Shown: positions 14,803 to 49,665 of the stretch, one piece after another | Layout of the letters: each line of letters starts with the position of its first letter | Position numbering within the stretch: the stretch's first letter is position 1 | Assembly: GCA_963702475.1 (NCBI GenBank) | Contig: CAVPCT010000003.1 | Coordinates: forward strand, 416,001 to 480,000 | From: an uncultured Thermoleophilia bacterium | Lineage (GTDB): Bacteria > Actinomycetota > Thermoleophilia > UBA2241 | DNA: 64,000 bases | Direction: 5' to 3' | Made by a program: the position numbers and the translations under genes | The notes under the pieces: model-generated | Seen by the model: the letters and a program-made list of their open reading frames with translations, nothing else | What the model was told of the DNA's origin: nothing | Databases searched by the model: none

Positions 14803-16437
<1,635 letters not shown>

Positions 16438-16551
16438 CCCCGCACGGGCGGGGGCCTGGCCGTTCGGGTCCCCGCCCGTCAGGGTAGTGAGAGAGCGTGC
16501 GCCTGAGCCGCCGTCGAGTCAGGCGGAGACGACGAGGGGGAGGGAGCGAGC

Positions 16552-18075
<1,524 letters not shown>

Positions 18076-18243: not shown

Positions 18244-18282
18244 GGGGCGGCGGGCCTTCGGGTCCGCCGCCCCTCTTTCGTT
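18244..18282 (+). terminator. Intrinsic terminator
   Basis: ggggcggcgggcc-TTCG-ggtccgccgcccc followed by tctttcgtt. Confidence 0.8.
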
Positions 18283-18490
18283 CCGGGCGCCGGTCCGGCC
18301 TTCGGCCCGCCGGCGCCCGCCGCGTGGCGCGCAAGCCGGCCCTTCCCGGCCGCGCGCCCAAGCGCTCGTCGCCGGCCCTCCGGCCCTCGGCAGGAGCTGG
18401 ATGGCCGTGGCCCTCCGGCAGTGACCGACCCGGCCGTCGTCCGGAGCGGGCCGTGGCGTCCCGCCGGACGGCTGTGCTAGGATGCCGCCA

Positions 18491-18637
18491 GTCCTACTCC
18501 AAGCCCTCCGCCCTACGGCACTCTGCTATGGGCGCCGGGCCGTACCACGGACAGACCGTGGGGCAGCGCGACTGCGCTGTCGTGGGCCCGCGGCGGAAAC
18601 GCCCGGACCTCCTCGTGCTTGGAAAGGAGCAGAGGAC
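18491..18637 (+). promoter_or_regulatory. Moco-class riboswitch, P3-containing form
   Basis: aCTCCaag...cCTAcgg...TATgg (P2), long P3 (ccacggacag...ctgtcgtgg), GGAAAC loop in P4, CCTCC...GGAAAGGAG 3' end. P1 (gtcct-a-ctcc / ggag...aggac) covers the SD; TAGGAT -10 box at 18478. Confidence 0.75.
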
Positions 18638-18638
18638 G

Positions 18639-19044
18639 ATGACGCAGCTGACGCTGCCCCCGGCCGGGCTTGCGGCTGTACATGCACGGGACTCCCAATC
18701 GCTGCCGGCGACGGCGCCGCCGCAGCGGGCGTTCTTCGGCGACCTGCACGTCCACACCGGCGACTCCGAGGGGCGGGGCACCCCCGCCCGCGCCTACGCC
18801 GCGGCCAGAGTGGCCGGGGCAGACTCCCTCGCCGTCACCGAACACACCGACCTGGTTCGGTCCTGCCCGGTGGTCGGGCCAGCTGTCCGCGGCTGCGACG
18901 TCCGCGGACTTCGTGGCCTTGAGCGGCTACGAGGCGACGCTGAGCTGGGGTCACCTCAACGTGTACGGCACGGAGGCTTGGCCCGGAGACGACCATTTGG
19001 GGCGGCGGACGCCTGGACCGCACCCGTGTGGACCGGGGCCGTGA
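18639..19044 (+). pseudogene. Frameshifted, truncated CehA/McbA-family (PHP-type) metallohydrolase
   Basis: FFGDLHVHTGDSEG...AVTEH in one frame, DFVALSGYEATLSWGHLNVYG in another; the C-terminal half is missing. Confidence 0.7.
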
Positions 19045-19081
19045 ACGCTTCAGCGTCGAGTCCTGATCTCAAGGAGGAGCG

Positions 19082-19630
19082 ATGACCGAGACAGCATCGA
19101 GACTGAGCTGGCGGACGATAGGCCTGCTCGCGGCCGCCGCCGCCGTGGTTCTGGCCGTCAGCCTGTTCGTGGCGCTACGGCCTCCGGACGCGGTCCCCGC
19201 GGAGGGTCCCTACGCCGACCTGGTGCTCAAGGGCAAGCTGACCAAGCGCATCGCGTGGGCGGACCTCCCCGTCACGGTCTCCTGGGACGGCACCAAGGAC
19301 AGCGACATCCCCAAGGACCTGCAGGCCGTCTACAGGGGGCAGACGCTGTACAAGCTCATCGGCCTTGTGGACGACAAGAAGCCGGGGAGCTTCAACGTCG
19401 CTCTGGCCAGGAAGGGCTACAAGATCCGTCTTCTGGCGACCGACGGTTACAGCTGGGACATGGACAGCAAGGCGATCATCGGCAAGAAGACGTGGATCGT
19501 CGCGCGGCTCAAGAACGGCAAGCCGCTGCCGGACGGTGAAGGCCCGTATCGCGACGTCGGCTCGTTCATCAAGCACTTCTACGGTCGCGAGTCGGTCAAG
19601 ATGCTCACACGCATCCAGCTCGTGTTCTGA
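19082..19630 (+). CDS. Exported or membrane-anchored protein with one molybdopterin-binding oxidoreductase-like domain
   Basis: N-terminal hydrophobic segment; YRGQTLYKLIGLVD, LATDGY, IVARLKNGKPLPDGEGPYR, VKMLTRI pattern of the sulfite-oxidase Moco-binding fold; no Cys in the protein; AAGGAGG SD. Confidence 0.7.
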   Translation: MTETASRLSWRTIGLLAAAAAVVLAVSLFVALRPPDAVPAEGPYADLVLKGKLTKRIAWADLPVTVSWDGTKDSDIPKDLQAVYRGQTLYKLIGLVDDKKPGSFNVALARKGYKIRLLATDGYSWDMDSKAIIGKKTWIVARLKNGKPLPDGEGPYRDVGSFIKHFYGRESVKMLTRIQLVF

Positions 19631-19645
19631 CGCAGGCTCCTCCGC

Positions 19646-21760
19646 GTGACCGCCGTCTCACACTCGGTTCTGACGCGTCCCGCACCGATCGGGCGCGCCT
19701 CTCTCGTCGCAACGGGCGGGGTGTTGCTCCTGACGGGACCGCGCGGGAGCGGCAAGACGACCGCCTGCCGCGCGCTGGTCTCGGACACGGTCTCCCGCGC
19801 TGGCGTGGTGGCCGGCATCGTGTGTCCCGCCCGCTTCCGCGACGGCGTCAAGGTCGGCATCGACGCCGTGGACGTGGCGAGCGGTGCGCGCCGGCGGCTC
19901 GCCACGAGGCTCGACGGCGCCGACGCGTATCATGCGGCGGCCGGAGGGGACCTCATCCTCGGCTCCTGGAGCTTCGACCGCGAGGCTCTGGCCTGGGCCG
20001 ACGACGTGCTGGCGGCCTCGTCCCCGGCGTGCGATCTGCTCGTGATCGACGAGCTCGGCCCCCTGGAGCTGCTGCGCGGTGAAGGCCTGACCTCGGCGCT
20101 GGACCTCGTCGACGCGGCCGCGGCCGGCCTCGTCGTGGCGGTCGTGCGGCCTGAGCTCGTGGACGTCGCGCTGGAGCGCTGGCCGCTCGCCCGCACCGTC
20201 ACTCCGGATGCGCTGGCGGCGCAGGTGCGCGCCGCGGGCCTCGACGACTCCGGAGTCGCAGGCCGGCCTCGTCGGGGCGCGCCCGCGGCGCCGGCCGTCG
20301 AGCTCCGCGGCCTCTCGGTCACCTATGCGGGTCGGCCCGCGCTGCGCGACGTGACCCTCGACGTGGCGGCGGGCGAGTTCGTGCTCGTCAGCGGCCCCTC
20401 CGGTTGCGGCAAGAGCACGCTGGCGCGAGTCTTGGCCGGTCTCGTCCCTCACGTGCTGCCCGGCGTCGTCGACGGGGCGGTCAGGGTCGGAGAGGTCGAC
20501 CCGGTCGCCCGCGGTCCGGCGGCGACCGCCCGCCATGTGGGCACGGTGTTCCAGGAGCCGGCTTCCCAGCTCTTCTGTCTCACCGTCGACGAGGAGCTCG
20601 CCTTCGGGCCACGGAACCTCGGCCTCGACGAACGGGAGGTGGCGGAGCGGGTGGACCGGGCCGTGACGGCCTGCTCCCTCGAGGCCGTGCGCTCGCGGGC
20701 GCCGGCGGCGCTCTCGGGGGGCGAGCAGCAGCGGGTGGCGACCGCGGCGGTGCTGACGATGAGGCCGCGTGTGCTCGTGCTCGACGAACCGCTTGCCGGT
20801 CTCGACCTGGGGGGCGTCCGTGCGCTCCTTGCGACGCTGGAGCGCCTCAACCGTGAGGAGGGCGTGACCGTCGTCCTCATCGAGCACAGGCTGGGGGAGG
20901 TCGTGTCGCTGGCGGACCGCGTCGTGCTGCTGGAGCGCGGTCGCGTGGTGGCCGACGGCCGGCCCCGGGAGATCCTCCACGACGAGGAGCTGTCGCGCCG
21001 GCTGGGGTTCCGCCATCCGGCCGTCGAGCCGGCGTCGGAGTGGGAGGATCTCCTGCAGCCGCTGGCCGGTCCCGGCGCCGGCGAGGTCGTGCTTCGCGCC
21101 GAGCATCTCGCGGCGGGCTACGGGAGGCGCCGCGTGCTCCACGACGTCGAGCTCGAGCTGCACGCCGGGGAGCTCGTGGCCCTCGTCGGCGAGAACGGCT
21201 CGGGCAAGAGCACGCTGGCGCGCGTCCTCGCCGGTCTCCGGCGTCCGGCCTCGGGCAGCCTGACGTTCCCCGGCGTGCGGAAGCCGCGGCCGGGCCGTGA
21301 CATCGGGCTCCTGCTGCAGGACCCGGCCGACCAGCTGCTCACGGACGAGGTGGACGCGGAGGTCGCCCTGGGGCCACGCTCCTGGGGGCGCTTCGACGCG
21401 GCGGCGCACGAGGACCTGCTCAGGAGGAGCGACCTCGCCGACCTGCGCGGCTATCCTCCGCTCTCCCTGTCCGCCGGACAGCAGCAACGCACCGTGCTCG
21501 CCGCTTCTCTGGCGTTGAGGCCGCGTGTCCTCATCCTGGACGAGCCGACCCACGGCCAGGACTGGGGACACCTGGAGCATCTCGTGGGCGTCCTCCAGGA
21601 CCTCAAGGCGGGCGGCAGCGCGATCCTGCTCATCACGCACGACTTCAAGCTGGCCCACTTCTGCGCCGACCGGGTGATGGTCCTCCGCGACGGGCGCATC
21701 GCCGCCGAGGGCGCCTTCTCGCGGCGTGGAGCACGTACCGGACGTGGGGCGGAGCCGTGA
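19646..21760 (+). CDS. ECF transporter dual ATPase (A-A') fused to an N-terminal THEP1/DUF2478-like NTPase
   Basis: Three P-loops: TGPRGSGKTT with LLVIDELGPLE; GPSGCGKST with FQEPASQLF, LSGGEQQR, VLDEP; GENGSGKST with LQDPADQL, LSAGQQQR, LDEPTHGQD. Confidence 0.88.
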   Translation: MTAVSHSVLTRPAPIGRASLVATGGVLLLTGPRGSGKTTACRALVSDTVSRAGVVAGIVCPARFRDGVKVGIDAVDVASGARRRLATRLDGADAYHAAAGGDLILGSWSFDREALAWADDVLAASSPACDLLVIDELGPLELLRGEGLTSALDLVDAAAAGLVVAVVRPELVDVALERWPLARTVTPDALAAQVRAAGLDDSGVAGRPRRGAPAAPAVELRGLSVTYAGRPALRDVTLDVAAGEFVLVSGPSGCGKSTLARVLAGLVPHVLPGVVDGAVRVGEVDPVARGPAATARHVGTVFQEPASQLFCLTVDEELAFGPRNLGLDEREVAERVDRAVTACSLEAVRSRAPAALSGGEQQRVATAAVLTMRPRVLVLDEPLAGLDLGGVRALLATLERLNREEGVTVVLIEHRLGEVVSLADRVVLLERGRVVADGRPREILHDEELSRRLGFRHPAVEPASEWEDLLQPLAGPGAGEVVLRAEHLAAGYGRRRVLHDVELELHAGELVALVGENGSGKSTLARVLAGLRRPASGSLTFPGVRKPRPGRDIGLLLQDPADQLLTDEVDAEVALGPRSWGRFDAAAHEDLLRRSDLADLRGYPPLSLSAGQQQRTVLAASLALRPRVLILDEPTHGQDWGHLEHLVGVLQDLKAGGSAILLITHDFKLAHFCADRVMVLRDGRIAAEGAFSRRGARTGRGAEP

Positions 21761-22371
21761 AGTTCTCGACCAAGGAGCTGGTGACGCTGGCGGTGTTCGG
21801 CACGCTGTGGGGAAGCGTGGAGATGACGCTGGGAGCCTGGTTGCACGCGGCCAACGCGCCGTTCACGGGGCTTCTGCTCGCCGGCGTGGGCATCTGTGTC
21901 GCCCTCATCGGCTACGTGTTCGTGCCGCGCGCAGGCGCCGTGTTCATGATCAGCCTGGTCGCGGCGATCCTGAAGGCGTTCAGCGTCGGCGGCGTGGTGC
22001 TCAACCCCATGATCGCGATCGTCGTGGAGGGCCTGCTCGCCGAGCTCGGCTTGGCCATCGGCGGCCGGCACCGTCGTTTGCTGCCGTTCCTCCTGGCCGG
22101 CGTGCTCGCCGTCAACTGGTCGCTGGTGCAGCCCTTCTTCACCCAGGGCGTGCTCGCCGGGCAAGGTGTGTTCCTCATCTACACGCGCACGCTGCAGAGG
22201 GTCGCCGACCTGCTGGGTCTGAGCCCCGGCATGGTTGTCGCCCTGGTCGCCATCGTCGTCCTGGCGCACTCGCTGGTCGGTCTGGGCGCGGGCGCGGTGG
22301 CGGCCGGCGTGGGGCGTCAGCTCACGCGACGTCTGCGTTCGCGTGCCCCCGTGGAGGTTCCAGGTGACTGA
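21757..22371 (+). CDS. ECF transporter S (substrate-specificity) component
   Basis: 204 aa, about 6 hydrophobic helices, MKFSTKELVTLAVFG N-terminus typical of S components; lies between the ATPase and T genes. Confidence 0.75.
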   Translation: MKFSTKELVTLAVFGTLWGSVEMTLGAWLHAANAPFTGLLLAGVGICVALIGYVFVPRAGAVFMISLVAAILKAFSVGGVVLNPMIAIVVEGLLAELGLAIGGRHRRLLPFLLAGVLAVNWSLVQPFFTQGVLAGQGVFLIYTRTLQRVADLLGLSPGMVVALVAIVVLAHSLVGLGAGAVAAGVGRQLTRRLRSRAPVEVPGD

Positions 22372-23152
22372 GCGACGTAGCGGGCTCAGCGAGGGGGGCT
22401 CCGCAGGGGCACCGCTCAGTGACCGGCGGAGCGTCGCCACCCCACGAACGGCCGCGACCGCATCACTCGGCGGGTGGCTCGGCACCCCGGGCTACCTCTG
22501 CTGTTTCGCCGCCTCGATGACGGCGGCCGTGCTGCTGCCCGGCTGGCGGGCGGCGCTGGCTCTCGCCCTCGCTGCGGCTCTCGCGCTGCTGTTCTACCGC
22601 GTCGCCTTCCGCGCGCTGACGCACCCAGGGCTCTGGGTCTTCGTGGGCTTGCTGCTGGTCTCGATGACGTTCTGGGTGGGGGAGCCGACCGGCAGCCTGG
22701 GTCCGTTGCCGGCGTCCCTCAGCGGGCTGTCCGCCGGCCTGCAGATGTCGTTGCGGGCGCTGGCCATCACGCTGGCGGTGCGCGGGCTGGCGGCGCGCGT
22801 CTCGCCCGGGGAGTCGGCCGGCCTGCTGGAGCGCGCCGGCGTCAAGGGGCTGGGGTTCACCGTTGGCGTCGCCTTCAACCTCCTCCCGTCCATGGAGCGG
22901 TCTGTCCGCCAGACGCTGGACACGGCGCGACTGCGTGGAGGGTCGCTGTGGCGGCGGCCGCGGGTGCTGCGCCTGGCCGCCGTGACCGCGCTCGCCTCGG
23001 CGGTGCGGCGCGCCGAGGACGTGGCCGCGGCCGCCGAGGTGCGTGGGTTCTCCCCGCAGCACACGCGCGCCTTGCCGCTACGCCGCGGGCGCTACGACCT
23101 GCGGGTGGCCGTGGTGCTCGGCCTCGTGGTCGCCGGTCTCGTGGTCCTCTGA
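22364..23152 (+). CDS. ECF transporter T component (EcfT/CbiQ-like)
   Basis: Hydrophobic N-half; ARLRG and AAEVRGF motifs (XRX coupling motifs); GGAGG SD before GTG 22364. The N-terminus is encoded by the 51-bp repeat. Confidence 0.82.
   Translation: MTERRSGLSEGGSAGAPLSDRRSVATPRTAATASLGGWLGTPGYLCCFAASMTAAVLLPGWRAALALALAAALALLFYRVAFRALTHPGLWVFVGLLLVSMTFWVGEPTGSLGPLPASLSGLSAGLQMSLRALAITLAVRGLAARVSPGESAGLLERAGVKGLGFTVGVAFNLLPSMERSVRQTLDTARLRGGSLWRRPRVLRLAAVTALASAVRRAEDVAAAAEVRGFSPQHTRALPLRRGRYDLRVAVVLGLVVAGLVVL
22368..22430 (+). repeat. Copy of the dispersed 51-bp junction repeat
   Basis: ctgagcgacgtagcgggctcagcgaggggggctccgcaggggcaccgctca-gtgacc aligns with units 2757-2858. Confidence 0.75.
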
Positions 23153-23246
23153 GCCGAGTGGGCTTCGATGGCCGCGATGCGAGGCACCGCCTGCGGCGGA
23201 TGCCATCCTGTACAACGCGAACGCCGTCCGTTCTACCCCGGCGTCC

Positions 23247-23275
23247 TTGTGAGCCGTCGCACGACCGCGTAGACT
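23247..23275 (+). promoter_or_regulatory. Sigma70-type promoter
   Basis: TTGTGA-N17-TAGACT immediately 5' of the second riboswitch. Confidence 0.6.
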
Positions 23276-23279
23276 CACT

Positions 23280-23386
23280 GCGCTTCTCCGAGTCGTGGAT
23301 GCCTAAGGGCCGAAGGGCCTATGGCGCCGCGACCGGAAGGGTACAGCGGGAAACCGCCGTGTCTCCCAGTGCGGAAAGGAGAGCGC
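23280..23386 (+). promoter_or_regulatory. Moco-class riboswitch, P3-less (tungsten-cofactor-associated) form
   Basis: CTCCGAG...CCTAAG...TATGG (P2), then CCGGAAGG in place of P3, GGGAAACC (P4), CTCCC...GGAAAGGAG; P1 gcgcttctcc/ggagagcgc. A hairpin with a T-run follows at ~23395-23427. Confidence 0.85.
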
Positions 23387-23570
23387 GCTTCGCCGGGCCT
23401 CTCCGCGTGCGGAAGGGCCCTTTCGTTGCCCCCGTCACGCGGGCGGCCCACCGCCGCCGGTGCACGCGTCCCGGCGACCGACGGGGCTCCTCCTCGTTCC
23501 CCACCGGGCGAACCGGCCGTCCCGACCTTCCCGGAGAAGCGGTAACCGGGCCACGGGGAGGAGTGGGAGC

Positions 23571-24695
23571 ATGACAAGAAGACTGACTGTTATCACCGTG
23601 CTGGTGGTCGTTCTGGTGCTCGCGGCGGGGGCGATGGCGTTCGCCAGGCATGCCGCCTCGTCCGAGATGTACGGCTGGGACCTGCAGCTGCGCAACACGG
23701 TGTCCACCCAGTACAGCAGCGACATGGCGTACAAGGCGTTCACCGCCTGGGCGGCCGCGCATCAGGTGACGATCGTCGACACCAACAAGACGCCGGACAA
23801 CCCGGCCGACGACACCACGTACAAGGGCGTCGCCCTCAAGACGCTCGTGGGGTATTTCGACGACGCCGACCCCGGCACGTTCAACACGGCGCTGGCCTCG
23901 GCCGGGTACAACGTCGTGCTCATGGGCATGGACGGCTTCACCGGCACGTTCAGTGCAGCCGACATCGCCGCCCTTGGCGACAAGGTCATCCTCGCCAATC
24001 TCGCCAACGACGCCCCGCTTGCGGTGCCGGCCGCCACACTCGGCAGCGGTGGCGCTGCCAGCTGGAAGCCGAGCTGGCCGCTCAGGGTCGTCAGCAACGA
24101 GGGCAGCGTGACCGGCAAGATGAAGCCCGGCGGCGTGCTGCGCGTGAGCATCGTGTCGGCCACAGATCCCAACGCGCCGGCCGAGCCCGTGGCCTGGGAC
24201 CTGCAGCTGCGGAACACGAAGACCAAGAAGTACAGCGCCGACATGACCTCCACGCAGTGGGCGACCTGGGCGGCCAAGGCCGGACGTACCGTCACCGTCA
24301 GCAGCACCGAAGGCACGAAGACCGTCGCCTACAAGGGCGTCTCGCTCAAGAACCTGGTCGGCTACTTCGACGACAAGAACCGCACCACGTTCAACACGAA
24401 GCTGGCCGCCAAGGGCTACTACATCACCATCCTCGGCATGGACGGGTTCAGCTACGCGTGGTCGAGCAAGGGCCTCGCCAAGCTCGGTAACAAGGTCATC
24501 GTGGCGAGCCAGGCCGACGGCGCCCCGCTGCCCGTGCCCAAGCCCTTCGTCAACAGCGAGGGCGCCGCGGAGTGGGTGCCCGACTGGCCGCTGCGCGTGG
24601 TGAGCAACGTGCCCGACGTGGAGGTGGATGCGAAGGTCCAGGGCATCGTGCGCCTGACGATCTCGTCGAAGGCGCCCAAGACAGCCCCCTTTTGA
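23571..24695 (+). CDS. Secreted protein with two tandem molybdopterin-binding oxidoreductase-like domains
   Basis: Signal peptide (...AGAMA). Internal duplication WDLQLRNT...YKGV.LK.LVGYFDD...GMDGF...LG.KVI.A...WPLRVVSN occurs twice; no Cys. Confidence 0.8.
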   Translation: MTRRLTVITVLVVVLVLAAGAMAFARHAASSEMYGWDLQLRNTVSTQYSSDMAYKAFTAWAAAHQVTIVDTNKTPDNPADDTTYKGVALKTLVGYFDDADPGTFNTALASAGYNVVLMGMDGFTGTFSAADIAALGDKVILANLANDAPLAVPAATLGSGGAASWKPSWPLRVVSNEGSVTGKMKPGGVLRVSIVSATDPNAPAEPVAWDLQLRNTKTKKYSADMTSTQWATWAAKAGRTVTVSSTEGTKTVAYKGVSLKNLVGYFDDKNRTTFNTKLAAKGYYITILGMDGFSYAWSSKGLAKLGNKVIVASQADGAPLPVPKPFVNSEGAAEWVPDWPLRVVSNVPDVEVDAKVQGIVRLTISSKAPKTAPF

Positions 24696-25143
24696 CCGGG
24701 CGCGAGCGGCGGGCACCGACGACCTGAAGCTGACCCTGCGCGGCAAGACCAAGAAGGTGCTGCCGTGGGCCAAGGTGCCGGCCAAGGTGGCCTGGCACGG
24801 CGAGAAGGCCGGCAACATCAATCCGTCGTTGCGGTACGTGTACCGGGGCCAGACACTGTCCAAGCTGGTGGGGCTCGTGGACGGCGGGAACAGCTCGTTC
24901 AACGTCGCGCTCGCCAAGAAGGGCTACCAGATCCAGTTCGTCTGCCGGGACGGCTACAAGCCGAAGATCCCGAGCAAGTGGATCGTCGGCAAGAAGACCT
25001 GGATCGTGGCGAAGCTCAAGAGCGGCAAGCCACTGCAGGGTGACGAAGCTCCGTTCCGCTTCGTCGGCGGCAAGCCGATCACGCAGCCGTTCAACAACAA
25101 GCTGTCGGCCTACGGGGTGGTGGAGATCCGGCTCATCTTCTGA
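24694..25143 (+). CDS. Single molybdopterin-binding-like domain with no evident start or signal peptide; paralogue of 19082-19630, possibly reached by +1 frameshift
   Basis: YRGQTLSKLVGLVD, SFNVALAKKGY and IVGKKTWIVAKLKSGKPL closely match the 19082 protein. Homology extends upstream of the first GTG (24757), and the frame is open across the upstream gene's stop. Confidence 0.7.
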   Translation, partial: DRARAAGTDDLKLTLRGKTKKVLPWAKVPAKVAWHGEKAGNINPSLRYVYRGQTLSKLVGLVDGGNSSFNVALAKKGYQIQFVCRDGYKPKIPSKWIVGKKTWIVAKLKSGKPLQGDEAPFRFVGGKPITQPFNNKLSAYGVVEIRLIF

Positions 25144-25290
25144 GCCGTGCGCGACCGGCAGACGGCGCGACGGGGGCTTTCGCCCAGCTCCCGTCGCGCC
25201 TGCCGGCATCCGGCGGCCACGTGCCGCCGCGCGGGCGACGCAAGGCATGAGCCGACGACGGCTCACGGGCAGCACTGGAGGAAGTCAGCA

Positions 25291-26331
25291 ATGAAGAGAA
25301 CGAGCGTGTGGGCGGCCCTCGTGACCGTGGTGCTGGTCGCAGCCGTCGCCCTCGTGGGGACGGCGGTGACGGGCGGCGCGCCGCAGGCGTCCGCCGCCGA
25401 CCCGGTGGTGCTCACGATCACCGGCAACAGTCAGACCAAGACGTACACCATGACGGAGTTGCGGGCGCTGCCCGCCTACACCGGCTACGCCGGGTACGTG
25501 AACAGCTCCGGCACCGTCAGCCCGCCGTGGCCCATCAAGGGTGTGAAGGTCACGGACCTGCTGGCCGAGATCGGCGGCATCCCCGACGGGCAGTCGGTCG
25601 ACGTCACCGCCATCGACGACTACGGCATGACGTTCACCTGGGACGAGGCCGTCAACGGCTCCGTCACCGTGTACGACGCCACCACCAAGAAGGAGGAGCC
25701 TGCGGCCGCGCCGCTCTCCATGGTGCTGGCGTACGAGGAGAACGGCGCGCCCATCGCGGCTTACCCGACGGGAGACGGGCCCCTGCGCCTCGTGTTCGCC
25801 CAGACGCAGGACGTCGGCCAGATCGTCGACGGGCATCTGTTCGTCAAGTGGGTCGACCGCGTCGGCCTGCGCAACGCCGTCGTGCCCTGGGAGGTCAAGA
25901 TGTACGGCCTCAAGGACAAGAAGGGCAAGCGGCAGACGTACACGCTGGACCGCATGAGCTACGACTCGTGCGCCACGCCGGGGTGTCACGGCGCCTCCTG
26001 GGTCGAGCCGGCCACGCAGAAGACCTGGAGCGGCGTGCCGCTGTTCCTGTGCATCGGCAAGGTCGACGGCGGCAAGGGTCACGGCGGCTACGGCGCCTAC
26101 AACGAGGCCCTCGCCCTCAAGGGCTACCGCATCAAGATCACATCCGCCGCCGGCAAGAGTGCGATCATCGGCTCGCGGACCATCCGCAACGTCGAGACGA
26201 TCATCTTGGCCAACAAGCTGATGGGATCCGAGCTCGGACCGGACTACTACCCGCTGCGGCTGATGGGTCCCAAGATCGGCAGCAAGAACTGGGTCGGGCA
26301 GATCACCAAGATCACGCTGCTCCCGAAGTGA
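25291..26331 (+). CDS. Secreted protein with two molybdopterin-binding oxidoreductase-like domains and a CX4CH motif
   Basis: Signal peptide (...QASA); TYTMTELRALP, KGVKVTDLL, AIDDYGMTF, VLAYEENG, GPLRLV, FVKWVDRV; SCATPGCHG; second domain WSGVPL...IILANKLMG...YPLRLMG. Confidence 0.82.
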   Translation: MKRTSVWAALVTVVLVAAVALVGTAVTGGAPQASAADPVVLTITGNSQTKTYTMTELRALPAYTGYAGYVNSSGTVSPPWPIKGVKVTDLLAEIGGIPDGQSVDVTAIDDYGMTFTWDEAVNGSVTVYDATTKKEEPAAAPLSMVLAYEENGAPIAAYPTGDGPLRLVFAQTQDVGQIVDGHLFVKWVDRVGLRNAVVPWEVKMYGLKDKKGKRQTYTLDRMSYDSCATPGCHGASWVEPATQKTWSGVPLFLCIGKVDGGKGHGGYGAYNEALALKGYRIKITSAAGKSAIIGSRTIRNVETIILANKLMGSELGPDYYPLRLMGPKIGSKNWVGQITKITLLPK

Positions 26332-26398
26332 GAGCGCTCCGTGGACACCTGACGGCCGCGTGCGCCGCGGCACCCGGTGCTGCCCAGCGGACGGCATC

Positions 26399-27418
26399 AT
26401 GAGGACCCGGGTCCTCGCGGCCGTCGCCTTCGTGCTGGCGCTCTCCGTGCCGGCCGGCCTGGCCGCCTGCGGCGGCCAGGCCGGCCCCTCCGCCTCGCCT
26501 TCGCCCTCCGTGAGCCCCTCCGGGCCCGTCGTGCTCACGGTGGTCGGCGAGGACGGCCAGAAGCAGTTCACGATGAACCAGCTCCAGGCGCTGCCGGCCT
26601 ACACCGGGTACGCCGGCCTCAAGAGCAGCACCGGCGTCATCACGCTCCCCGTGGAGTACACCGGCGTCTCGCTCACCTCGCTCACCGACCTCGTGGGCGG
26701 CATGAGCAAGACCAACGGCGTCACGCTCGTGGCGAAGGACGGCTACGGTATGACGATCTCGTACGCGCAGCTCGTCGATCACGCCTTCACGACCTATGAC
26801 CCTGCCACGGGCGACGAGGTGCCGCCGGCGGACGACCTCACGGTCATCGTCGCCTACGCACGAGAGGGCGAGCCGCTGGGCGAGGACGAAGGGCCGCTGC
26901 GGCTGATGGTCGCCTCCCCCGATCCCGGAGGGCAGATCGTCGACGGACACTGGACGGTGAAGTGGGTCGACCGGGTCTCGGTCACCAAGGCCTCCGCGGA
27001 GTGGAAGGTGCAGATCCAGGGCGCGCGCCCCGACACCCTGGACAAGCCCAGGTACGTCAACTGCGCCTCGCCCGGCTGCCACGGTTCGGGCTGGGTGGAC
27101 GACAGCGGAAGGCGCTGGGAGGGCATCCCGCTCTACCTGGTCGCCGGTCTCGTGGACGACGAGAAGAAGCACGGCGAGGGCGCCTACAACGCGGCCCTGG
27201 CGAAGCAGGGCTACGACATCCTCATCGAGGACGCCGACGGCGAGGTGACGACCATCGACTCCCGCGACATCGCCGGCAGGGACGACGTGGTGCTGTCGTC
27301 CAAGGTGGACGGCGGCGAGCTCTCCGACGAGGACTTCCCGCTGCGGCTGGTCGGCCCGGGTCTGGACGAAGCGCAGATGCCCGGGCGCGTCGCCCGCATC
27401 GTCGTGCGCCCGCGGTAG
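26399..27418 (+). CDS. Lipoprotein with two molybdopterin-binding oxidoreductase-like domains and a CX4CH motif
   Basis: Lipobox LAAC then a Ser/Pro linker; FTMNQLQALP, YTGVSL, AKDGYGMT, VAYAREGEPL...GPLRL, VKWVDRV; NCASPGCHG; paralogue of 25291. Confidence 0.82.
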   Translation: MRTRVLAAVAFVLALSVPAGLAACGGQAGPSASPSPSVSPSGPVVLTVVGEDGQKQFTMNQLQALPAYTGYAGLKSSTGVITLPVEYTGVSLTSLTDLVGGMSKTNGVTLVAKDGYGMTISYAQLVDHAFTTYDPATGDEVPPADDLTVIVAYAREGEPLGEDEGPLRLMVASPDPGGQIVDGHWTVKWVDRVSVTKASAEWKVQIQGARPDTLDKPRYVNCASPGCHGSGWVDDSGRRWEGIPLYLVAGLVDDEKKHGEGAYNAALAKQGYDILIEDADGEVTTIDSRDIAGRDDVVLSSKVDGGELSDEDFPLRLVGPGLDEAQMPGRVARIVVRPR

Positions 27419-27428
27419 CGGGTACGGC

Positions 27429-28547
27429 ATGGCGGCAGGTGGTCGCGGGTCCGGGCGGGCGGTCCGGAGTGCGTGGGCTCGCGGGGCCGCACTCGCGCTG
27501 CTGGCCTGCGTCGCACTGCCGGCAGCGGCCCTCTCGGCGGCCTGCGGCGACACCCCGCGGCAGGTCAGGGTGATCGAGGCGGGCAGCCTCATCGTCCCGT
27601 TCGCCGACGTGGCCGCCGCGTTCGAACGGTCGCACCCGGGCGTGGAGGTCGTCACGGAGAGCCACGGAAGCATCCAGGTGCTGCGCTACGTGTCGGAGCT
27701 CGGCGAGCGCTTCGACCTCGCCGCGAGCGCCGACGAGCAGCTCATGGAGCCGCTGCTGTACGACCGCGACGACCCGGCGACGGGCGAGCCCTTCGCGAGC
27801 TGGTACTGCTCGTTCGCCACGAACCGGGTGGTCCTCGCCGTGTCGCCGAAGAGCCCGCTGGCCGGGCAGCTCACGGCCGCCGACTGGTACCGGCGCATCA
27901 CGGAGCCGGATGTGCGCTTCGGGCTCGCCGACCCGCGCTTCGACGCCGCCGGCTACCGCGCCCTGATGGTGCTCCAGCTGGCCGAGCGTGCCTACGACGA
28001 CCCGTACTTGTTCGAGGACATGTTCATGGGCGCGTTCACGTCGCCGGTGACCGTCGAGCAGCGCGGTCCGACGGCGGTCATCGAGGTCCCCGAGATCCTC
28101 GAGACCCGCTCCGGATCGCACGTCGTGCTCCGCGGCGCGAGCATCCAGCTGGTGGCGCTGCTGGAATCGGGCGACCTCGATTGCGCCTTCGAGTACGAGA
28201 GCGTCGCCCGGCAGCACGGGCTCGAGTACGTGCGGCTGCCCGGCTCCGTGGACCTCGGCGATCCGTCCCGCCGCGACCTGTACGGGACGGTGGAGGTCAA
28301 GCTCGACTTCCAGCGCTTCGCCAGCGTGCGCCCGGTCTTCCGCGGCGACGTGATCCGCTACGCGTTCACGATCCCCGCGAACGCGCCGGACCCCGAGCTG
28401 GCGGCGGAGTTCGCGGCGTTCCTTGTCGGCGAGGAGGGCCGCAGCATCCTCCTCGCCGACCACCAGCCTCTGCTCACGCCGCCCGAGCTCGACGGCGCGG
28501 CCGCCGCCCCGGAGGAGGTGAGACGGGCGTGCGCAGGGTCACGGTGA
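27429..28547 (+). CDS. wtpA: Tungstate/molybdate ABC transporter substrate-binding lipoprotein, WtpA-type
   Basis: AGSLIVPF, HGSIQVLR, ASAD, DPRFDAAGYRA, FEYESVARQHGL and IRYAFTIP match WtpA better than short ModA; lipobox SAAC. Confidence 0.85.
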   Translation: MAAGGRGSGRAVRSAWARGAALALLACVALPAAALSAACGDTPRQVRVIEAGSLIVPFADVAAAFERSHPGVEVVTESHGSIQVLRYVSELGERFDLAASADEQLMEPLLYDRDDPATGEPFASWYCSFATNRVVLAVSPKSPLAGQLTAADWYRRITEPDVRFGLADPRFDAAGYRALMVLQLAERAYDDPYLFEDMFMGAFTSPVTVEQRGPTAVIEVPEILETRSGSHVVLRGASIQLVALLESGDLDCAFEYESVARQHGLEYVRLPGSVDLGDPSRRDLYGTVEVKLDFQRFASVRPVFRGDVIRYAFTIPANAPDPELAAEFAAFLVGEEGRSILLADHQPLLTPPELDGAAAAPEEVRRACAGSR

Positions 28548-28647: not shown

Positions 28648-29454
28648 GTGACCCGGCGCCGCCCCTCGCTGTTCTGGGCGCTCTGCGCCGTCGCCGGCGC
28701 GGTGCTGGTGGCGTTCGTCGTGCTGCCTGCCGCCGGCATGCTCGCCGGTGCCGGCGCCGGCATGCTTGGCGAGGCGCTTCGTCAGGACGACGTGCGGCGC
28801 TCCCTGTGGCTCACCGTGAGCGCCGCCCTCATCTCCACCGCCATCGCCTTCGTCGCCGGCGTGCCGCTCGCCTACCTGCTCGCGCGCAAGGACTTTCCCG
28901 GCAAGCGTGTGGTGGAGGGCATCATCGACCTGCCCATCGTCTTTCCGCACACCGCCGCCGGCGTCGCCCTTCTCATGGTGTGGGGCCGCGAGGGCGTCGT
29001 GGGGCGGGCGTTCGCCTCGGTGGGCATCACGTTCACCGACACCGTGGCCGGTATCGTCCTGGCGATGCTGTTCGTGAGCCTCCCGTTCCTGGTGGACACC
29101 TCGCGAGAGGCCTTCGCGCTGGTGGACGAACGGTACGAGCACGTGGCCCGCACCCTGGGCTCGTCGCGTGCGGGGGCCTTCGCGCGCGTCACCTTCCCCC
29201 AGGCGTGGCGCGGCGTGTTCTCGGGCGCCGTGCTCATGTGGGGCCGCGGTATCAGCGAGTTCGGTGCCGTCGTCATCCTCGCCTACAACCCCAAGGTGAT
29301 CTCCGTGCTCACCTTCGAGCGGTTCGAGGGGTTCGGGCTCGACGCTGCAGAGCCCCCGGCCGTGCTCATCGTCATCGTCGCCTTCGTCGTCTTCCTCGTG
29401 CTGCGCACGCTGCTGCTGCCGCGACGCAGGCGCTCGCGCAGGGACGCGTCGTGA
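28648..29454 (+). CDS. wtpB: Tungstate/molybdate ABC transporter permease
   Basis: GVPLAYLLAR, IIDLPIVFPHTAAGVALL, VARTLG and WGRGISEFGAV motifs. Confidence 0.85.
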   Translation: MTRRRPSLFWALCAVAGAVLVAFVVLPAAGMLAGAGAGMLGEALRQDDVRRSLWLTVSAALISTAIAFVAGVPLAYLLARKDFPGKRVVEGIIDLPIVFPHTAAGVALLMVWGREGVVGRAFASVGITFTDTVAGIVLAMLFVSLPFLVDTSREAFALVDERYEHVARTLGSSRAGAFARVTFPQAWRGVFSGAVLMWGRGISEFGAVVILAYNPKVISVLTFERFEGFGLDAAEPPAVLIVIVAFVVFLVLRTLLLPRRRRSRRDAS

Positions 29455-30533
29455 TCGGCCTCCGGCGGCTCCAGGTCGAGGCCGGCGGCTTTCGCGTGGG
29501 GCCGCTGGACCTCGAGGTGGGCGACGGGGTCTACGGCGTGCTGCTCGGGCCGAGCGGCGCCGGCAAGAGCCTCGTCCTCGAGGCGGCCGCCGGCGTGTGG
29601 CCGCTCCGCGCCGGCGCCGTGCTCGTCGACGGCGAGGAGGTGTCGGCGCGCGCCCCAGAGCGGCGCCGCGTCGGCCTCGTCTTCCAGGACGGCCTGCTGT
29701 TCCCGCACCTGAGCGTGGCCGACAACATCGCCTACGGCCTGCGTGACGAGCCGCGTGTGGGGGCCGGGCGCCGTGGCCGCGCCGCGGCCGTGGCCGCGCT
29801 GGCGGGCTCCGTCGGCGCCGGCCACCTGCTCGAGCGCCGCCCTGCCACGCTCTCGGGCGGCGAGCGGCAGCGAGTCGCGCTGGCGCGCGCCCTCGCGCCC
29901 CGTCCGCGCGTCCTCCTCCTCGACGAGCCGCTCAGCGCCGTCGACACGGAGGCGCGGGAGGAGCTGCAGGAGCTGCTGCGGTCCCTCAGCCGCGAGCGCG
30001 GTCTCACCGTGCTCCACGTCACCCACGACCGCGCCGAGGCGTTCGCCTTGGCCGACGTGTGCGCCGTGCTCGTGGGCGGCCGGCTGCGCCAGACCGGCCG
30101 GCCGCAGGATGTGCTCAGGGAGCCGGCCGACGAGGCGGTCGCCCGGCTCCTCGGCGCGCGCAACGTCCTGCGCGCCTCGCGCGACCCGGCCGATCCCGCG
30201 CGCGCCCTGACCGTCTCAGGACTCACCCTGGCAGTCACGACCCCGCTTCCGGATGGCGCCTTCGACCTGGTCGTCCGCCCCGAGGACGTCGAGGTCCGTC
30301 CGCCCGGCGCCGCGGTGGCGGCAGGCACTGTGGCTCACGCCACCGTGGCTCGCCTCGTCCTGCAGGGCAGCCACGTGCTGGTCGGCGTCGAAGCGCGTGC
30401 AGCGGACGGTGCTCAGGCGCCGCTGGAGGCGCTGCTGGGGCGTCGCCGGGTCGAGGAGTTGGACCTGCGCATCGGGACCGCGATCGAGCTCGTCATCGAC
30501 CCCGCCCACGTCCACGTGATCCCGATCGCGTAG
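29451..30533 (+). CDS. wtpC: Tungstate/molybdate ABC transporter ATPase with a C-terminal TOBE-like region
   Basis: GPSGAGKS, LFPHLSVADNI, LSGGERQRVALARAL, LLLDEP; GTG overlaps the permease stop. Confidence 0.85.
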   Translation: MIGLRRLQVEAGGFRVGPLDLEVGDGVYGVLLGPSGAGKSLVLEAAAGVWPLRAGAVLVDGEEVSARAPERRRVGLVFQDGLLFPHLSVADNIAYGLRDEPRVGAGRRGRAAAVAALAGSVGAGHLLERRPATLSGGERQRVALARALAPRPRVLLLDEPLSAVDTEAREELQELLRSLSRERGLTVLHVTHDRAEAFALADVCAVLVGGRLRQTGRPQDVLREPADEAVARLLGARNVLRASRDPADPARALTVSGLTLAVTTPLPDGAFDLVVRPEDVEVRPPGAAVAAGTVAHATVARLVLQGSHVLVGVEARAADGAQAPLEALLGRRRVEELDLRIGTAIELVIDPAHVHVIPIA

Positions 30534-30622
30534 CGGTCGTAACGCCGTTTGCAGAACGCCCGCCGGGGAATGTGTGAGCCGACAGGCCGCGAGGCGCGGC
30601 GTCCCCAGCGGAGGAGGGTCCC

Positions 30623-30826
30623 ATGGCAATCAGCGCGAGAAACCAGCTCCCTGGCACGGTCAAGAGCGTCGTCCTCGGCACGGTGATGGCGGAGGTCGTC
30701 GTGGACGTGGCGGGGCACGAGGTGGTCTCGGCCATCACGCGGCACGCGGTGGAGCGCCTGGACCTCAAGGCCGGCGACGAGGTCAAGGCCATCATCAAGT
30801 CCACGGAGGTCATGATAGAGAAGTGA
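30623..30826 (+). CDS. Molbindin / TOBE (Mop) molybdate-tungstate binding protein
   Basis: MAISARNQLPG...SAIT...LDLKAGDEVKAIIKSTEVMI. Confidence 0.92.
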   Translation: MAISARNQLPGTVKSVVLGTVMAEVVVDVAGHEVVSAITRHAVERLDLKAGDEVKAIIKSTEVMIEK

Positions 30827-30916
30827 CGCATGGGCGCCCCGGCGTTAGACTCGTTGTGAACTGACGCCCATTCGGCGGCGCCCTGCGCCGTCCGTCCGAG
30901 GAAGAACGGCCAGCGC

Positions 30917-31882
30917 GTGAACGCCATCCCCGACAGGGTGCAGGGCCGCGTGGATTACCTGCGCCTCTCGATCACCGACCGCTGTAACCTGCGCTGCGCG
31001 TACTGCATGCCGCCAGAGGGCGTACCGGCGCGCGCCCACGGCGAGATCCTGAGCTACGAGGAGCTCGCCGCCTTCGCGCGCGTCGCCGCCGGCTGCGGCA
31101 TCAGCAAGGTGCGCATCACCGGCGGCGAACCGCTCGTGCGCCACGGCTGCGCCGACCTGGTGGCGATGCTCGCCCGCACCAGCGGCATCCGCGACCTCTC
31201 GCTGACTACCAACGGCACGCTGCTCGCGCGCTTCGCCGGCGAGCTCCGCGACGCGGGCCTGAGCCGTGTCAACATCAGCCTGGACAGCCTGGACGAGGCG
31301 CGCTTCGCCGAAGTCACGCGTGGTGGCCGGCTCGGCGACGCGCTGGCCGGCCTGGATGCCGCGTTCGCGGCCGGCTTCGCGCCGGTCAAGGTGAACACCC
31401 TCCTGCTCGAGGGCGTTGAGGACGAGTTGCCGGCGTTCGTCGACCTCACGCGAGCGCGCGAGGTGCACGTGCGTTTCATCGAGTTCATGCCGCTGGACCG
31501 CCGGCTGGGCGGGAGCGGCCGCCTGGTGCCGGCGCCGCAGGTGCTGCAGCGGCTGCGCGAGCTGTACGAGCTGGTGCCGCACGAGGGGCCGCTGGGACAC
31601 GGGCCGGCGCAGTACTGGCACGTGCCCGGGGCTCTCGGCACCATCGGCTTCATCGCCGGCGTCTCCGAGCACTTCTGCGAGAGCTGCAACCGCCTGCGTC
31701 TCACGGCCGACGGGCGTCTGCGCACCTGCCTGTTCTCGGGCGAGGAGACCGCCGTGCGGCCGCTCATCTCCCGCCCGGAGGAGCTGCGCGCCGCCATCCT
31801 CGCCGCGGTCTCGGGCAAGAGCTTCGACCGCTGCGCCGAGCGGCGCGCCAACGAGCGCGCCATGTCCGAGATCGGCGGCTGA
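30917..31882 (+). CDS. moaA: GTP 3',8-cyclase
   Basis: [33 protein letters not shown]...CLF and C-terminal MSEIGG. Confidence 0.97.
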
Positions 31883-31884
31883 GC

Positions 31885-32433
31885 GTGAACAGCCACCGCA
31901 GGCGGGCTGACGAGCGGTGTACCGAAGAGGCACCGCTCTGCGAGCTCAGTCACATCGACGAGCAGGGCCGCGCGCGCATGGTGGACGTGGGCGCCAAGGA
32001 CGAGACCGAGCGCGTGGCGCGCGCCGAGGCGCTCGTCGTCATGGCGCCCGAGACCCTGCGGCTCATCGCCGACCGGGCCGTGGCCAAGGGCGACGTGCTG
32101 GCCACGGCCCGCCTGGCCGGCATCATGGCCGCCAAGCGCACGCACGAGCTCATCCCGCTGTGCCACCAGGTCAACCTCACCGCCGTGCACGTGGACATCA
32201 CGGCCGACGAGGAGCTGCCGGGCCTGCGCGTGGTCACCGAGGCGCGCCTCCGCGGCCGCACCGGCGTGGAGATGGAGGCGCTCGTGGCGGCCTCCGTGGC
32301 GGGCCTCACGATCTACGACATGTGCAAGGCCGTGGACCGCGGCATGGAGGTGCGGACCGTGCGCCTCCTCGAGAAGAGCGGCGGCCGCAGTGGCCACTGG
32401 AATCGTCCCGACCTCAGCGAGGAGAGCTCATGA
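31885..32433 (+). CDS. moaC: Cyclic pyranopterin monophosphate synthase
   Basis: LSHID...[20 protein letters not shown] and IYDMCKAVD motifs; N-terminal extension encoded by a copy of the dispersed repeat. Confidence 0.96.
31898..31945 (+). repeat. Degenerate copy of the dispersed 51-bp repeat inside the moaC 5' end
   Basis: gcgggctgacgagcggtgtaccgaagaggcaccgctc compared with gcgggctcatcgaggggtgcaccgaagggacaccgctc at 2769. Confidence 0.65.
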
Positions 32434-34043: not shown

Positions 34044-34207
34044 GCTGCAACCTACGCCGCTCCGCCTGCGTCTCCTCCCGCGGAGCGCGCGCCCGGCGGA
34101 GGGGCTCGAGAATACGGTCTAATCCCGTCCGTTGTAGTGGAAATGGCGCGAAGGCAGAAGGTGGGCTACACTAGGCTTCGCCTCGTCATACAACCGGGGG
34201 TATCCGC

Positions 34208-49416: not shown

Positions 49417-49451
49417 ACGCAGACCGGCGGAGCGGACTCCCAAGTCAGCAA

Positions 49452-49612: not shown

Positions 49613-49665
49613 GCCGTCCGCAGCCCTGCCCATCTGCGCCCACACCCCGCGAGGGAGGGAGCGCC

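Follow-up and report, generated by a model that had tools for sequence, protein, structure and literature searches.

The subject of this analysis is a group of five open reading frames (ORFs), here called A to E, in a stretch of 64,000 nucleotides (positions 416,001 to 480,000 of contig CAVPCT010000003.1; hereafter the window, with coordinates counted from its first letter) from an uncultured Thermoleophilia bacterium. The five ORFs encode eight domains related to the molybdenum-binding domain of sulfite oxidase (SUOX). They lie behind two riboswitches of the molybdenum/tungsten cofactor (Moco/Tuco) class RF01055 and beside two importers, one of the energy-coupling factor (ECF) type and the other the ATP-binding cassette (ABC) tungstate importer WtpABC. 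The window has a G+C content of about 71%, the host genome comprises 4.3 Mb in 9 contigs, and the closest relatives, judged by the locus, are metagenome-assembled genomes (MAGs) of Thermoleophilia. In the following list, TOBE, MOSC and MoCF_biosynth were named by Pfam, MoaA and MoaC were named from the ORF sequence, and the domain types I and II are those defined in the next section.

14803-18075 (+): two aldehyde dehydrogenases
18244-18273: terminator-like hairpin, after the aldehyde dehydrogenase genes and upstream of the A-ECF riboswitch
18489-18643 (+): RF01055 Moco/Tuco riboswitch with stem-loops at P3, heading the A-ECF unit
19082-19630 (+): A, an N-terminal membrane anchor and one type II (PruR-like) domain, no Cys
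19646-21760 (+): NTPase_1 fused to EcfA-EcfA' (two ABC ATPase domains)
21757-22371 (+): ECF S component, YkoE-like, PF09819
22235-23152 (+): ECF T component (CbiQ); true start uncertain, the listed ORF overlapping S
23274-23397 (+): P3-less (predicted Tuco-type) RF01055 riboswitch, heading B/C-D-E-WtpABC-TOBE-MoaA-MoaC-MOSC/MoaB
23571-24695 (+): B, a Sec signal and two type II domains (B1 about 23661-24161, B2 about 24162-24692), no Cys
24687-24695 (+): candidate programmed frameshift site CCCTTTTGA, at the B stop
24694-25143 (+): C, one type II domain lacking its own start and signal, in a frame that opens at 24658
25291-26331 (+): D, a Sec signal, a type I and a type II domain; CATPGCH at 25969-25989 in the type II domain
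26399-27418 (+): E, a lipoprotein (LAAC) with a type I and a type II domain; CASPGCH at 27062-27082 in the type II domain
27429-28547, 28648-29454 and 29454-30533 (+): WtpA, WtpB and WtpC, the tungstate ABC importer
30578-33383 (+): TOBE protein, MoaA, MoaC and a MOSC-MoaB/Mog fusion
from 34175 (+): Ccm genes and HemC

Both riboswitches were identified with the Rfam covariance model RF01055 (gathering score 36). The copy before A scores 48.5 bits and has an insert of 38 nt at P3, where two hairpins fold (z -3.41), and the copy before B scores 58.3 bits with the P3 columns gapped. RNAs of this class that contain P3 are described as accompanying Moco genes, and P3-less ones as accompanying tungsten-cofactor genes (Regulski et al. 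2008, PMC2408646); by that comparison the A-ECF riboswitch would be of the Moco type and the B-cluster riboswitch of the Tuco type. Since a separate riboswitch stands between the ECF genes and B, we read the locus as two transcription units. Upstream of the B cluster, RF01055 is kept on the same strand in 16 of the 17 Thermoleophilia-type loci scanned, 82-454 nt before the B match in 14 of them and about 1.4-1.5 kb before it in L027 and L029 (loci of relatives are cited by such numbers where they must be told apart). Because these matches are 119-131 nt long, they are probably P3-less as well. RF01055 also precedes the ECF cassette in all three cassettes with upstream sequence, namely in the window, in L086 (158 nt upstream) and in L087 (160 nt upstream). 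RF01055 thereby places the genes in a molybdenum/tungsten (Mo/W) cofactor regulon, which goes beyond what a first-pass annotation of this DNA, made from the sequence alone, had contained; that annotation overlooked both riboswitches, as well as the E-Wtp linkage, the CX4CH motif, the B|C frameshift site and the de novo Moco pathway described below.

Three copies of RF01055 occur in the whole genome. The third (C3:563881-564016, minus strand, 48 bits) stands directly before a ModA-like SBP_bac_11 gene (164 bits), so that all three genomic cofactor riboswitches head uptake units. A second RF01055 match is found between WtpC and MoaA in L011 (14019-14140) and L014 (14066-14186), which would divide the long operon there into an uptake unit and a pterin-synthesis unit. 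Within the window, a 253-amino-acid ORF with a PHP-like 'GDLHVHT' motif (18324-19085, plus strand) overlaps the riboswitch at 18489-18643; it has no Pfam match and is probably not a gene.

The host is a heavy user of Mo and W with a complete de novo Moco pathway. Its genome gives 11 matches to AOR, a tungsten-enzyme family, and 29 to PF00384, a domain of the dimethyl sulfoxide (DMSO) reductase family; MoaA and MoaC are encoded in the window, and MoaE and MoeA were matched in the genome, which also codes for a canonical SUOX protein (motif FHCVEGWS). Multihaem cytochrome ORFs are abundant, for example C8:26259-29732 (minus strand) and C5:801945-809396 (minus strand); one of the ORFs carries 23 CXXCH and 5 CX4CH motifs, and others carry 15, 11, 11, 9 and 7 CXXCH motifs. 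Taken together with the AOR and PF00384 matches, these ORFs suggest that the host lives anaerobically, passes electrons to the outside of the cell and has a very large number of Mo/W enzymes.

Eight SUOX-like domains and the B|C junction

When the eight domain pieces were compared all against all by BLASTP, the closest pairs were B1-B2 (E 8.8e-50), D1-E1 (4.7e-44), A-C (6.6e-42) and D2-E2 (9.3e-37), and more distant pieces were also linked (A-B1 5.7e-15, A-E2 5.6e-13, A-E1 1.4e-4, E1-E2 0.004). The eight domains are homologous and form two types: type I comprises D1 and E1, and type II comprises A, B1, B2, C, D2 and E2. The first-pass annotation had counted eight SUOX-type domains in these five ORFs, and they are indeed present and related, at E-values from 1e-50 to 4e-3. 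It had also described one repeated motif, of which the aromatic/Ile-x-G-[VIQ] and P-[LYF]-R elements occur in 8/8 domains, but D-[GD]-[YF] in only 6/8, D2 and E2 being without it. Pfam PF00174 (cut-off 24 bits) recognises D (38.2 bits) and E (43.1 bits), whereas A falls below the cut-off (18.2 bits) and B and C give no match. A type II profile, built from 30 A/C homologues, aligned to E2 by hhalign with a probability of 98.1% (E 6.6e-14), and its 6 matches in the 4.3-Mb genome all lie at this locus.

The cysteine that ligates Mo in SUOX enzymes is missing at the aligned place in A, B, D1 and E1. No Cys at all occurs in A, B or D1, the only one in the E1 part is the lipobox Cys24, and the single Cys of C lies at another place than the ligand. 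Aligned by hhalign to the genome's canonical PF00174 protein, E1 has Ser76 against the ligand Cys, at a probability of only 54.5% (E 1.2e-4), and D1 has Asn there. The absence of Cys from A and B, and from the ligand place of D1 and E1, agrees with the first-pass annotation; its wider description of the domains as free of the catalytic Cys holds for these and for C, but D2 and E2 carry a conserved CX4CH motif, near the ligand loop by spacing, to which we return below.

Export signals were read by eye. A has an N-terminal signal anchor, B and D have Sec-type signals and E has the lipobox LAAC, which a simple pattern also finds in most E homologues, including MAKKWLLVLALCALLFTAAAC in Longilinea. 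No signal of the twin-arginine translocation (Tat) type, as used for folded holo-enzymes, was seen by eye in A, B, D or E, and the RR in the 'TRR' of B is not conserved, relatives having MKTRL or MKKRL. Export by Sec or as a lipoprotein implies that the proteins leave the cell as apo-proteins. This is what the first-pass annotation had proposed on the same two grounds, the signals and the missing ligand Cys.

The domains have the Oxidored_molyb/SUOX fold according to AlphaFold models, a test that the first-pass annotation had set beforehand. The E model, from an alignment of 28 sequences, reached a pLDDT of 76.6 and a pTM of 0.63, with low confidence over residues 199-227, the part that contains the Cys motif; the best A model reached a pLDDT of 80.9. 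In Foldseek searches the E model matched SoxC, PruR (7kom, 7kos, 7rkb; TM-score on the target 0.65-0.75) and sulfite oxidases at E 1e-6 to 1e-4, and the top match of the A model was PruR 7kom (E 3.2e-6, TM-score 0.72 on the target). Common to both models are the PruR 'putative pterin binding proteins' (7kom, 7kp2, 7kos, 7rkb) with TM-scores of 0.62-0.75 on the target, followed by sulfite oxidases, SorA/SorT, SoxC, nitrate reductase and YedY. Sequence-based searches reached less far. Against PDB sequences the A/C family profile gave nothing significant and the E profile was weak, its best match being a plant sulfite oxidase (E 0.0045); in the ESM Atlas, E and the S component found only 'Oxidored_molyb' and 'hypothetical / Trep_Strep' clusters. 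The NCBIfam label 'GEGP motif-containing dihaem protein' was rejected for D and E, which at 22.8 and 26.5 bits stay far below its cut-off of 300.

PruR is described as a periplasmic, Cys-less SUOX-fold protein that binds reduced monapterin (PMC11194511; review PMC13259868). As reported in PMC11194511, the Tyr of an N-x-Y motif and a Trp sandwich the pterin (N102, Y104, W160), the cleft is called too short for Moco by the authors, and the protein regulates the cyclic di-GMP enzyme DcpA. A HMMER alignment places K-D-G-Y of E1 on L-N-D-Y of PruR, and the pterin-contacting N-x-Y thus appears to correspond to D-[GD]-[YF], with Asp in place of Asn. These likenesses raise the question of whether A to E are themselves pterin sensors, binding excreted pterin and regulating a membrane partner without delivering a substrate. 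In favour of this, PruR tops the structural matches of A and ranks high among those of E, and the proteins are exported and Cys-less. Nonetheless, there is no DcpA-type GGDEF/EAL gene or other signalling gene adjacent to the locus, where the neighbours are instead the ECF, Wtp and Moa genes; the P-W motif of PruR is absent; and the tandem, multi-domain layout differs from that of the single-domain PruR. We give the sensor reading very little chance.

The first-pass annotation had listed ORF 24694 (C) as a separate ORF. Its domain is real, but the first start codon, GTG at 24757, lies inside that domain, there is no signal, and the frame, which opens at 24658, overlaps the B stop. B ends in CCC TTT TGA, and the +1 frame, C CCT TTT GAC, continues into C across a conserved putative slip site, CCCUUUUGA, between the two. 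Of 32 junctions read in all, 11 are split exactly as in the window, 13 have B and C in one ORF and 5 have a C with its own signal peptide; the other 3 (L005, L028, L079) were unreadable or spurious. CCCTTTTGA is identical in 11/11 split loci and reads P-F-[DE] in the +1 frame, while its flanks have diverged; among the fused loci, 10 were inspected (all but L025, L027 and L029), and 7 of these have C CCT TTT GA in frame. Both codons are rare here: over 21 window genes, 5 of 220 Phe codons are TTT and 24 of 445 Pro codons are CCT, and TTTT occurs 9 times on both strands of the 64 kb. It follows that this string is conserved as nucleotides. A tree of E (30 rows; L071, L005, L008 and L028 left out) requires no fewer than 2 changes for the split state when well-supported branches are counted, and 4 in its best form. 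Contigs of three public runs, from three studies, bridge the site without an indel, with 11, 2 and 4 differences elsewhere, which excludes an assembly slip in this genome as the source of the extra T.

We regard the B|C string as a candidate programmed frameshift site that would give two isoforms. A +1 shift at UUU UGA would yield B-C in the split genes, and a -1 shift on C CCU UUU may yield B alone in the fused genes. TTG inside CCCTTTTGAC was considered as a restart codon for C and ruled out, as it lies in the third frame. Among the sequencing runs that carry this DNA none is listed as RNA, and contigs over parts of B in one run guessed to be RNA were not taken as expression. Programmed frameshifts are familiar from prfB (+1, CUU UGA C) and dnaX (-1, A AAA AAG). 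The junction resembles them in having a slippery run in or next to UGA and two putative products from one gene, and differs in the site itself (CCC UUU UGA / C CCU UUU GA) and in that no conserved Shine-Dalgarno-like stimulator was seen. It is offered as a candidate new recoding site.

Ties to the tungstate and ECF importers

A pattern search of one genome per species gave 224 confirmed E relatives. The best 80 loci were kept and searched by tblastn with 20 window proteins (E <= 1e-8). Among the 74 loci with at least 1.5 kb of sequence downstream of E, the other six being too short, WtpA lies within 2.6 kb downstream on the same strand in 73, from both Thermoleophilia and Anaerolineae, L039 being the exception. 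The WtpA of the window passes the NCBIfam equivalog TIGR03730 (258.1 bits against a cut-off of 242.75). Thermoleophilia-type loci have the order Aldh - [riboswitch] - B - C - D - E - WtpA - WtpB - WtpC - ... - MoaA - MoaC - MOSC/MoaB - CcmE - CcmF, and those of Anaerolineae and other Chloroflexota the order E - WtpA - WtpB. B, C or D accompanies E in 31/80 loci, the TOBE protein, MoaA, MoaC and MOSC-MoaB all have matches in relatives' loci, and E is 64-83% identical among 27 aligned homologues. The E of Chloroflexota has a third domain; the protein of Longilinea arvoryzae (L036), a cultured carrier, has three PF00174 stretches (86.6 bits).

Two observations on these loci stand apart. The third SUOX-like domain of L036 (9890-11332) and of other Chloroflexota E carries a conserved CxxC pair, for example ACKDCL in Longilinea, with Cys pairs at matching places in the E homologues of L043, L051, L055, L072, L075 and L079. 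The B-C-D-E locus of L015, labelled a Deltaproteobacteria MAG, nests inside the Thermoleophilia clade of the E tree, and the contig is probably mis-binned rather than a case of transfer.

The genes that follow A encode an ECF transporter with EcfA/A', T and S in one operon. The 19646-21760 protein matches NTPase_1 (60.7 bits), ABC_tran in 2 stretches (186.9 bits) and TIGR04521 (340.4 bits against a cut-off of 330); the S component matches PF09819 (29.1 bits against 25.2) and the T component CbiQ (47.7 bits against 25). This unit is rare. Homologues of the S component number only 61 among 5.8 billion proteins, under the JGI name of a thiamin/hydroxymethylpyrimidine (HMP) permease, and within the class it was present in 5 of 201 sampled genomes, while a phylum sample of 401 gave 2, one of these weakly (1.7e-7). 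A lies directly upstream of NTPase-EcfAA'-S-T in the window and in 4/4 other S-bearing genomes, that is, in all five cassettes. The L086 cassette holds A twice and is flanked by AI-2E transporter, GNAT, MFS and aldehyde dehydrogenase genes, which give no clue to function. In L087 the order is riboswitch, MobA-MobB, A, ECF, adjoining a gene of the DMSO-reductase family.

These distributions show that B to E belong with Wtp and that A belongs with the ECF importer. They bear directly on the relay put forward by the first-pass annotation, in which B, C and D would be secreted 'mocophores' that hand Moco over to lipoprotein E, from which it would reach the ECF S component, in the manner of Isd/NEAT haem capture. 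What can be said for it is that all are Cys-less, SUOX-fold and Sec-exported proteins, encoded in one 8-kb stretch under cofactor riboswitches, and that A, of the same domain type, has a fixed ECF partner, the part of the proposal that stands in 5/5 cassettes. For B to E it is not supported: tblastn found the S component, the T component and the NTPase domain in 0/80 E loci, E is tied to WtpA, the S component is as rare as stated, the L086 cassette lies 20 kb from any B-E gene, a second riboswitch parts the two units, and pockets of the PruR type are described as too short for Moco (PMC11194511). We consider the relay highly improbable.

The type II domain also has a wider distribution. Among 1.84 billion sequences the A/C profile matched 484 cluster representatives at E <= 1e-3, 249 at <= 1e-10 and 81 at <= 1e-30. 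Of 147 type II proteins examined, 6 contain CXXCH and 3 contain CX4CH; PF00174 was found in 6 of 7 wider-family proteins scanned and PKD domains in 2. Proteins P0224-P0267, of 900-3100 amino acids, have 3-8 type II copies, some together with PKD and DUF2341. Since the domain is also a repeat module of large surface proteins, caution is needed in naming a narrow ligand, and one might suppose that A to E are general structural or adhesive modules of the cell surface, with no Mo/W ligand and only an incidental linkage to transporters. The giant multi-repeat proteins with PKD and DUF2341 are what suggests this. The linkage of E to WtpA in 73/74 loci of two phyla, the riboswitch before the B cluster in 16/17 relatives and before the ECF genes in 3/3 cassettes, the presence of all 6 type II domains of the genome at this one locus, and the 64-83% identity of E make it scarcely probable at all.

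Complex prediction lends weak support to direct contact between E and WtpA. A predicted complex of mature WtpA and mature E scored 0.40 (runs 0.51, 0.29 and 0.40), against 0.00 for the best of 3 controls, with at least 62% contact agreement between runs and a partner pLDDT of at least 82. Of 80 solved complexes, 58 reach our mark for this score, as do 2 of 110 mismatched pairs; among those that reach it, only 7 of the 80 complexes and both mismatches have values of 0.60 or less. These counts are only a rough calibration because our own alignments were used in the prediction.

Elsewhere in the window, a divergent 240-amino-acid ORF (33396-34118, minus strand) lies between the Moa and Ccm genes and may encode a regulator (HTH_8 17.9 bits, below the cut-off of 22), and a glmS ribozyme/riboswitch lies at 49444-49617 on the plus strand (82 bits against a gathering score of 37).

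Proposed function and known systems compared

D2 and E2 share an invariant Cys-His motif. In 28 aligned E homologues C222, A223, P225, G226, C227, H228, G229 and W232 are invariant, as are S77, G79, H184 and H258, and Cys-His is kept in 80/80 loci, as C-x4-C-H in 73, C-A-Q-C-H in 1 (L055) and G-x4-C-H in 6. The CX4CH pattern, Sec export, the Ccm genes of the genome (from 34175 in the window) and the use of CX4CH inside obvious multihaem ORFs, one of which has 23 CXXCH and 5 CX4CH, all favour a haem; a CXXCH-type motif, Sec export and a maturation system are the features by which c-type cytochromes are recognised, and all three are found for D and E. The motif is probably a covalent haem c site. 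Co-occurrence of E with cytochrome c maturation genes is uninformative because PF01578 is near-universal, present in 7/8 E-bearing genomes (G576 has none) versus 112/121 overall, and in 5/5 genomes of a smaller sample.

Such a site would allow D and E to be surface redox enzymes, with haem c and a degenerate SUOX domain, that convert poorly available W/Mo (thio-anions, mineral-bound or reduced forms) or a pterin to a form usable by WtpA, B-C and A being binding helpers. SorAB and animal sulfite oxidase likewise have a haem adjoining the SUOX domain. A Cys-His pattern in CX4CH, CXXCH or xCH form at 80/80 loci, a genome rich in multihaem cytochromes, the Tyr and K-W of the cofactor cleft kept in E1, and co-expression with WtpABC under a Tuco-type riboswitch, as predicted from the operon, would all fit. 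However, D1 and E1 lack the Mo-ligand Cys, Sec export rules out loading with Moco in the cytoplasm, the Cys-His may instead be a metal ligand homologous to the canonical Cys loop, the haem is itself a prediction, and no substrate can be named. On balance the redox reading seems unlikely to us.

We favour the explanation that the proteins are non-catalytic capture modules of a Mo/W-cofactor supply regulon that feed the adjoining importer, to which we assign an even chance. They would most aptly be classed with PruR, as a variant of that Cys-less, SUOX-fold type of binder that has been recruited to Mo/W acquisition; capture and hand-over to the importers are functions that we infer. Riboswitch control lends weight to the central idea of the first-pass annotation, that of exported apo-receptors, which we find plausible. 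The five ORFs would yield four products, A, B (with C added through a ribosomal shift), D and E, which would be exported unfolded, by Sec or as a lipoprotein, and remain at the cell surface. Both units would be switched on when cofactor is scarce: a first with the Moco-type riboswitch and its P3 stem-loops, A and NTPase-EcfAA'-S-T, and a second with the Tuco-type, P3-less riboswitch, B/C, D, E, WtpABC, TOBE, MoaA, MoaC and MOSC-MoaB. A would serve the ECF S component, and E, aided by D and B-C, would serve the tungstate-binding protein WtpA. The invariant Cys-His would give D2 and E2 a further site for a cofactor or metal, most probably the covalent haem c. The ligand of A and the ECF unit may be a pterin or pyranopterin (Moco, molybdopterin or cyclic pyranopterin monophosphate, cPMP), which we propose tentatively; a Mo/W oxyanion is a somewhat unlikely choice, and some other compound about equally so. 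The ligand of B to E would be a W/Mo species or the cofactor.

Several results weigh against the capture explanation. Only 1 of 5 A models is confident, the other four having pLDDT values of 48-60, and the WtpA-E complex score gives weak support. A counterpart (K-W) of the sandwich Trp of PruR is present only in D1 and E1, and in the sequence comparison its P-W motif was found at the Cys place of none of the domains. Six loci have a single Cys at the CX4CH place, and the loop G-C-H-G-S-G-W ... R-W-E-G-I of E2 matches the canonical F-H-C-V-E-G-W-S ... K-W-G-G-V by spacing, so that the Cys may be a homologue of the metal ligand and not a haem site. RF01055 was not matched in L022, among the 17 Thermoleophilia-type loci scanned, or in the 2 Chloroflexi loci scanned (L036, L040). 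Of the 147 type II representatives, 55 have at least 800 amino acids, and occurrence in giant repeat proteins fits a general binding or structural module. Finally, with a de novo pathway, a ModA-like gene and WtpABC, this host has no need to import the cofactor.

The boldest form of the proposal is that A with NTPase-EcfAA'-S-T is the first bacterial importer of pyranopterins (Moco, molybdopterin or cPMP), with A as its outward receptor, and that B/C-D-E does the same for the tungsten side at WtpA. We rate it as rather doubtful. If it were true, the importer would feed MobA-MobB directly in one genome (L087), and anaerobes would scavenge ready-made Mo/W cofactor from their surroundings. To our knowledge no bacterial uptake route for Moco or pterin precursors has been described, and uptake of Mo/W is thought to require just an oxyanion-binding protein and an ABC permease. 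A literature search at abstract level found no bacterial uptake of Moco or pterin precursors (Moco uptake gave only nematode/plant Moco-transfer work), no ECF unit linked to molybdopterin, tungstate, Moco or the riboswitch, and nothing on such a system under WtpA with a lipoprotein or cytochrome or under the GEGP dihaem family; SUOX-fold surface proteins are not known to us from the described Wtp, Tup or Mod systems. Look-alikes of a cofactor domain that are exported, stand under cofactor riboswitches and accompany WtpA in two phyla as well as a rare ECF importer suggest that obtaining Mo/W or their cofactor includes a so far undescribed step outside the cell. For such a step they supply definite candidates that can be cloned. 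They would extend the PruR class of pterin binders beyond signalling and beyond Proteobacteria, and offer a pair of putative Moco-type and Tuco-type riboswitches in one locus.

The closest known relatives in structure are the PruR proteins of Agrobacterium, Vibrio and Klebsiella (PDB 7kos, 7kom, 7kp2, 7rkb). Like them, the domains studied here are exported, have a truncated SUOX fold of about 135-150 residues by prediction and lack the Mo-ligand Cys, so that catalysis is not expected; by sequence, a Tyr/Phe counterpart of the pterin-cleft Tyr stands in 6/8. Unlike PruR, which is encoded with DcpA and found in Proteobacteria, they occur in tandem and membrane-anchored in Actinomycetota and Chloroflexota, with Moco/Tuco riboswitches, importers and Moa genes, and D2 and E2 have the extra Cys-His. 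With the SUOX molybdoenzymes (SorA/SorT, SoxC, MsrP/YedY, sulfite oxidase) they share the predicted fold and the motifs Y/W-x-G-V, D-G-Y, G-x-P-L and P-L-R-L...K-W; D and E, though not A, B or C, exceed the PF00174 cut-off, and a haem partner would be reminiscent of SorAB. They differ from those enzymes in the lack of the ligand Cys, in whose place E1 has Ser76 and D1 has Asn, in export by Sec or as a lipoprotein and not by Tat, and in having no dimerisation domain.

Among transporters, the A-ECF unit resembles the Group I ECF importers (CbiMNQO/NikMNQO with NikK/NikL; YkoEDC), which also have a dedicated A-A'-T-S set in one operon and an extra exported component, and its S component, as PF09819, is like the YkoE family. 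It departs from them in the SUOX/PruR fold predicted for the extra component, in the N-terminal NTPase_1 of EcfA-A', in its place under a putative Moco riboswitch and, once, in its company with MobA-MobB. The B-cluster operon is like the WtpABC genes described under a P3-less Moco-motif RNA (Regulski et al. 2008, PMC2408646), where the P3-less aptamer heads an operon for W uptake and molybdopterin synthesis; what sets it apart from the Wtp operon as described there is the insertion of 3 or 4 genes for SUOX-fold surface proteins between the riboswitch and wtpA.

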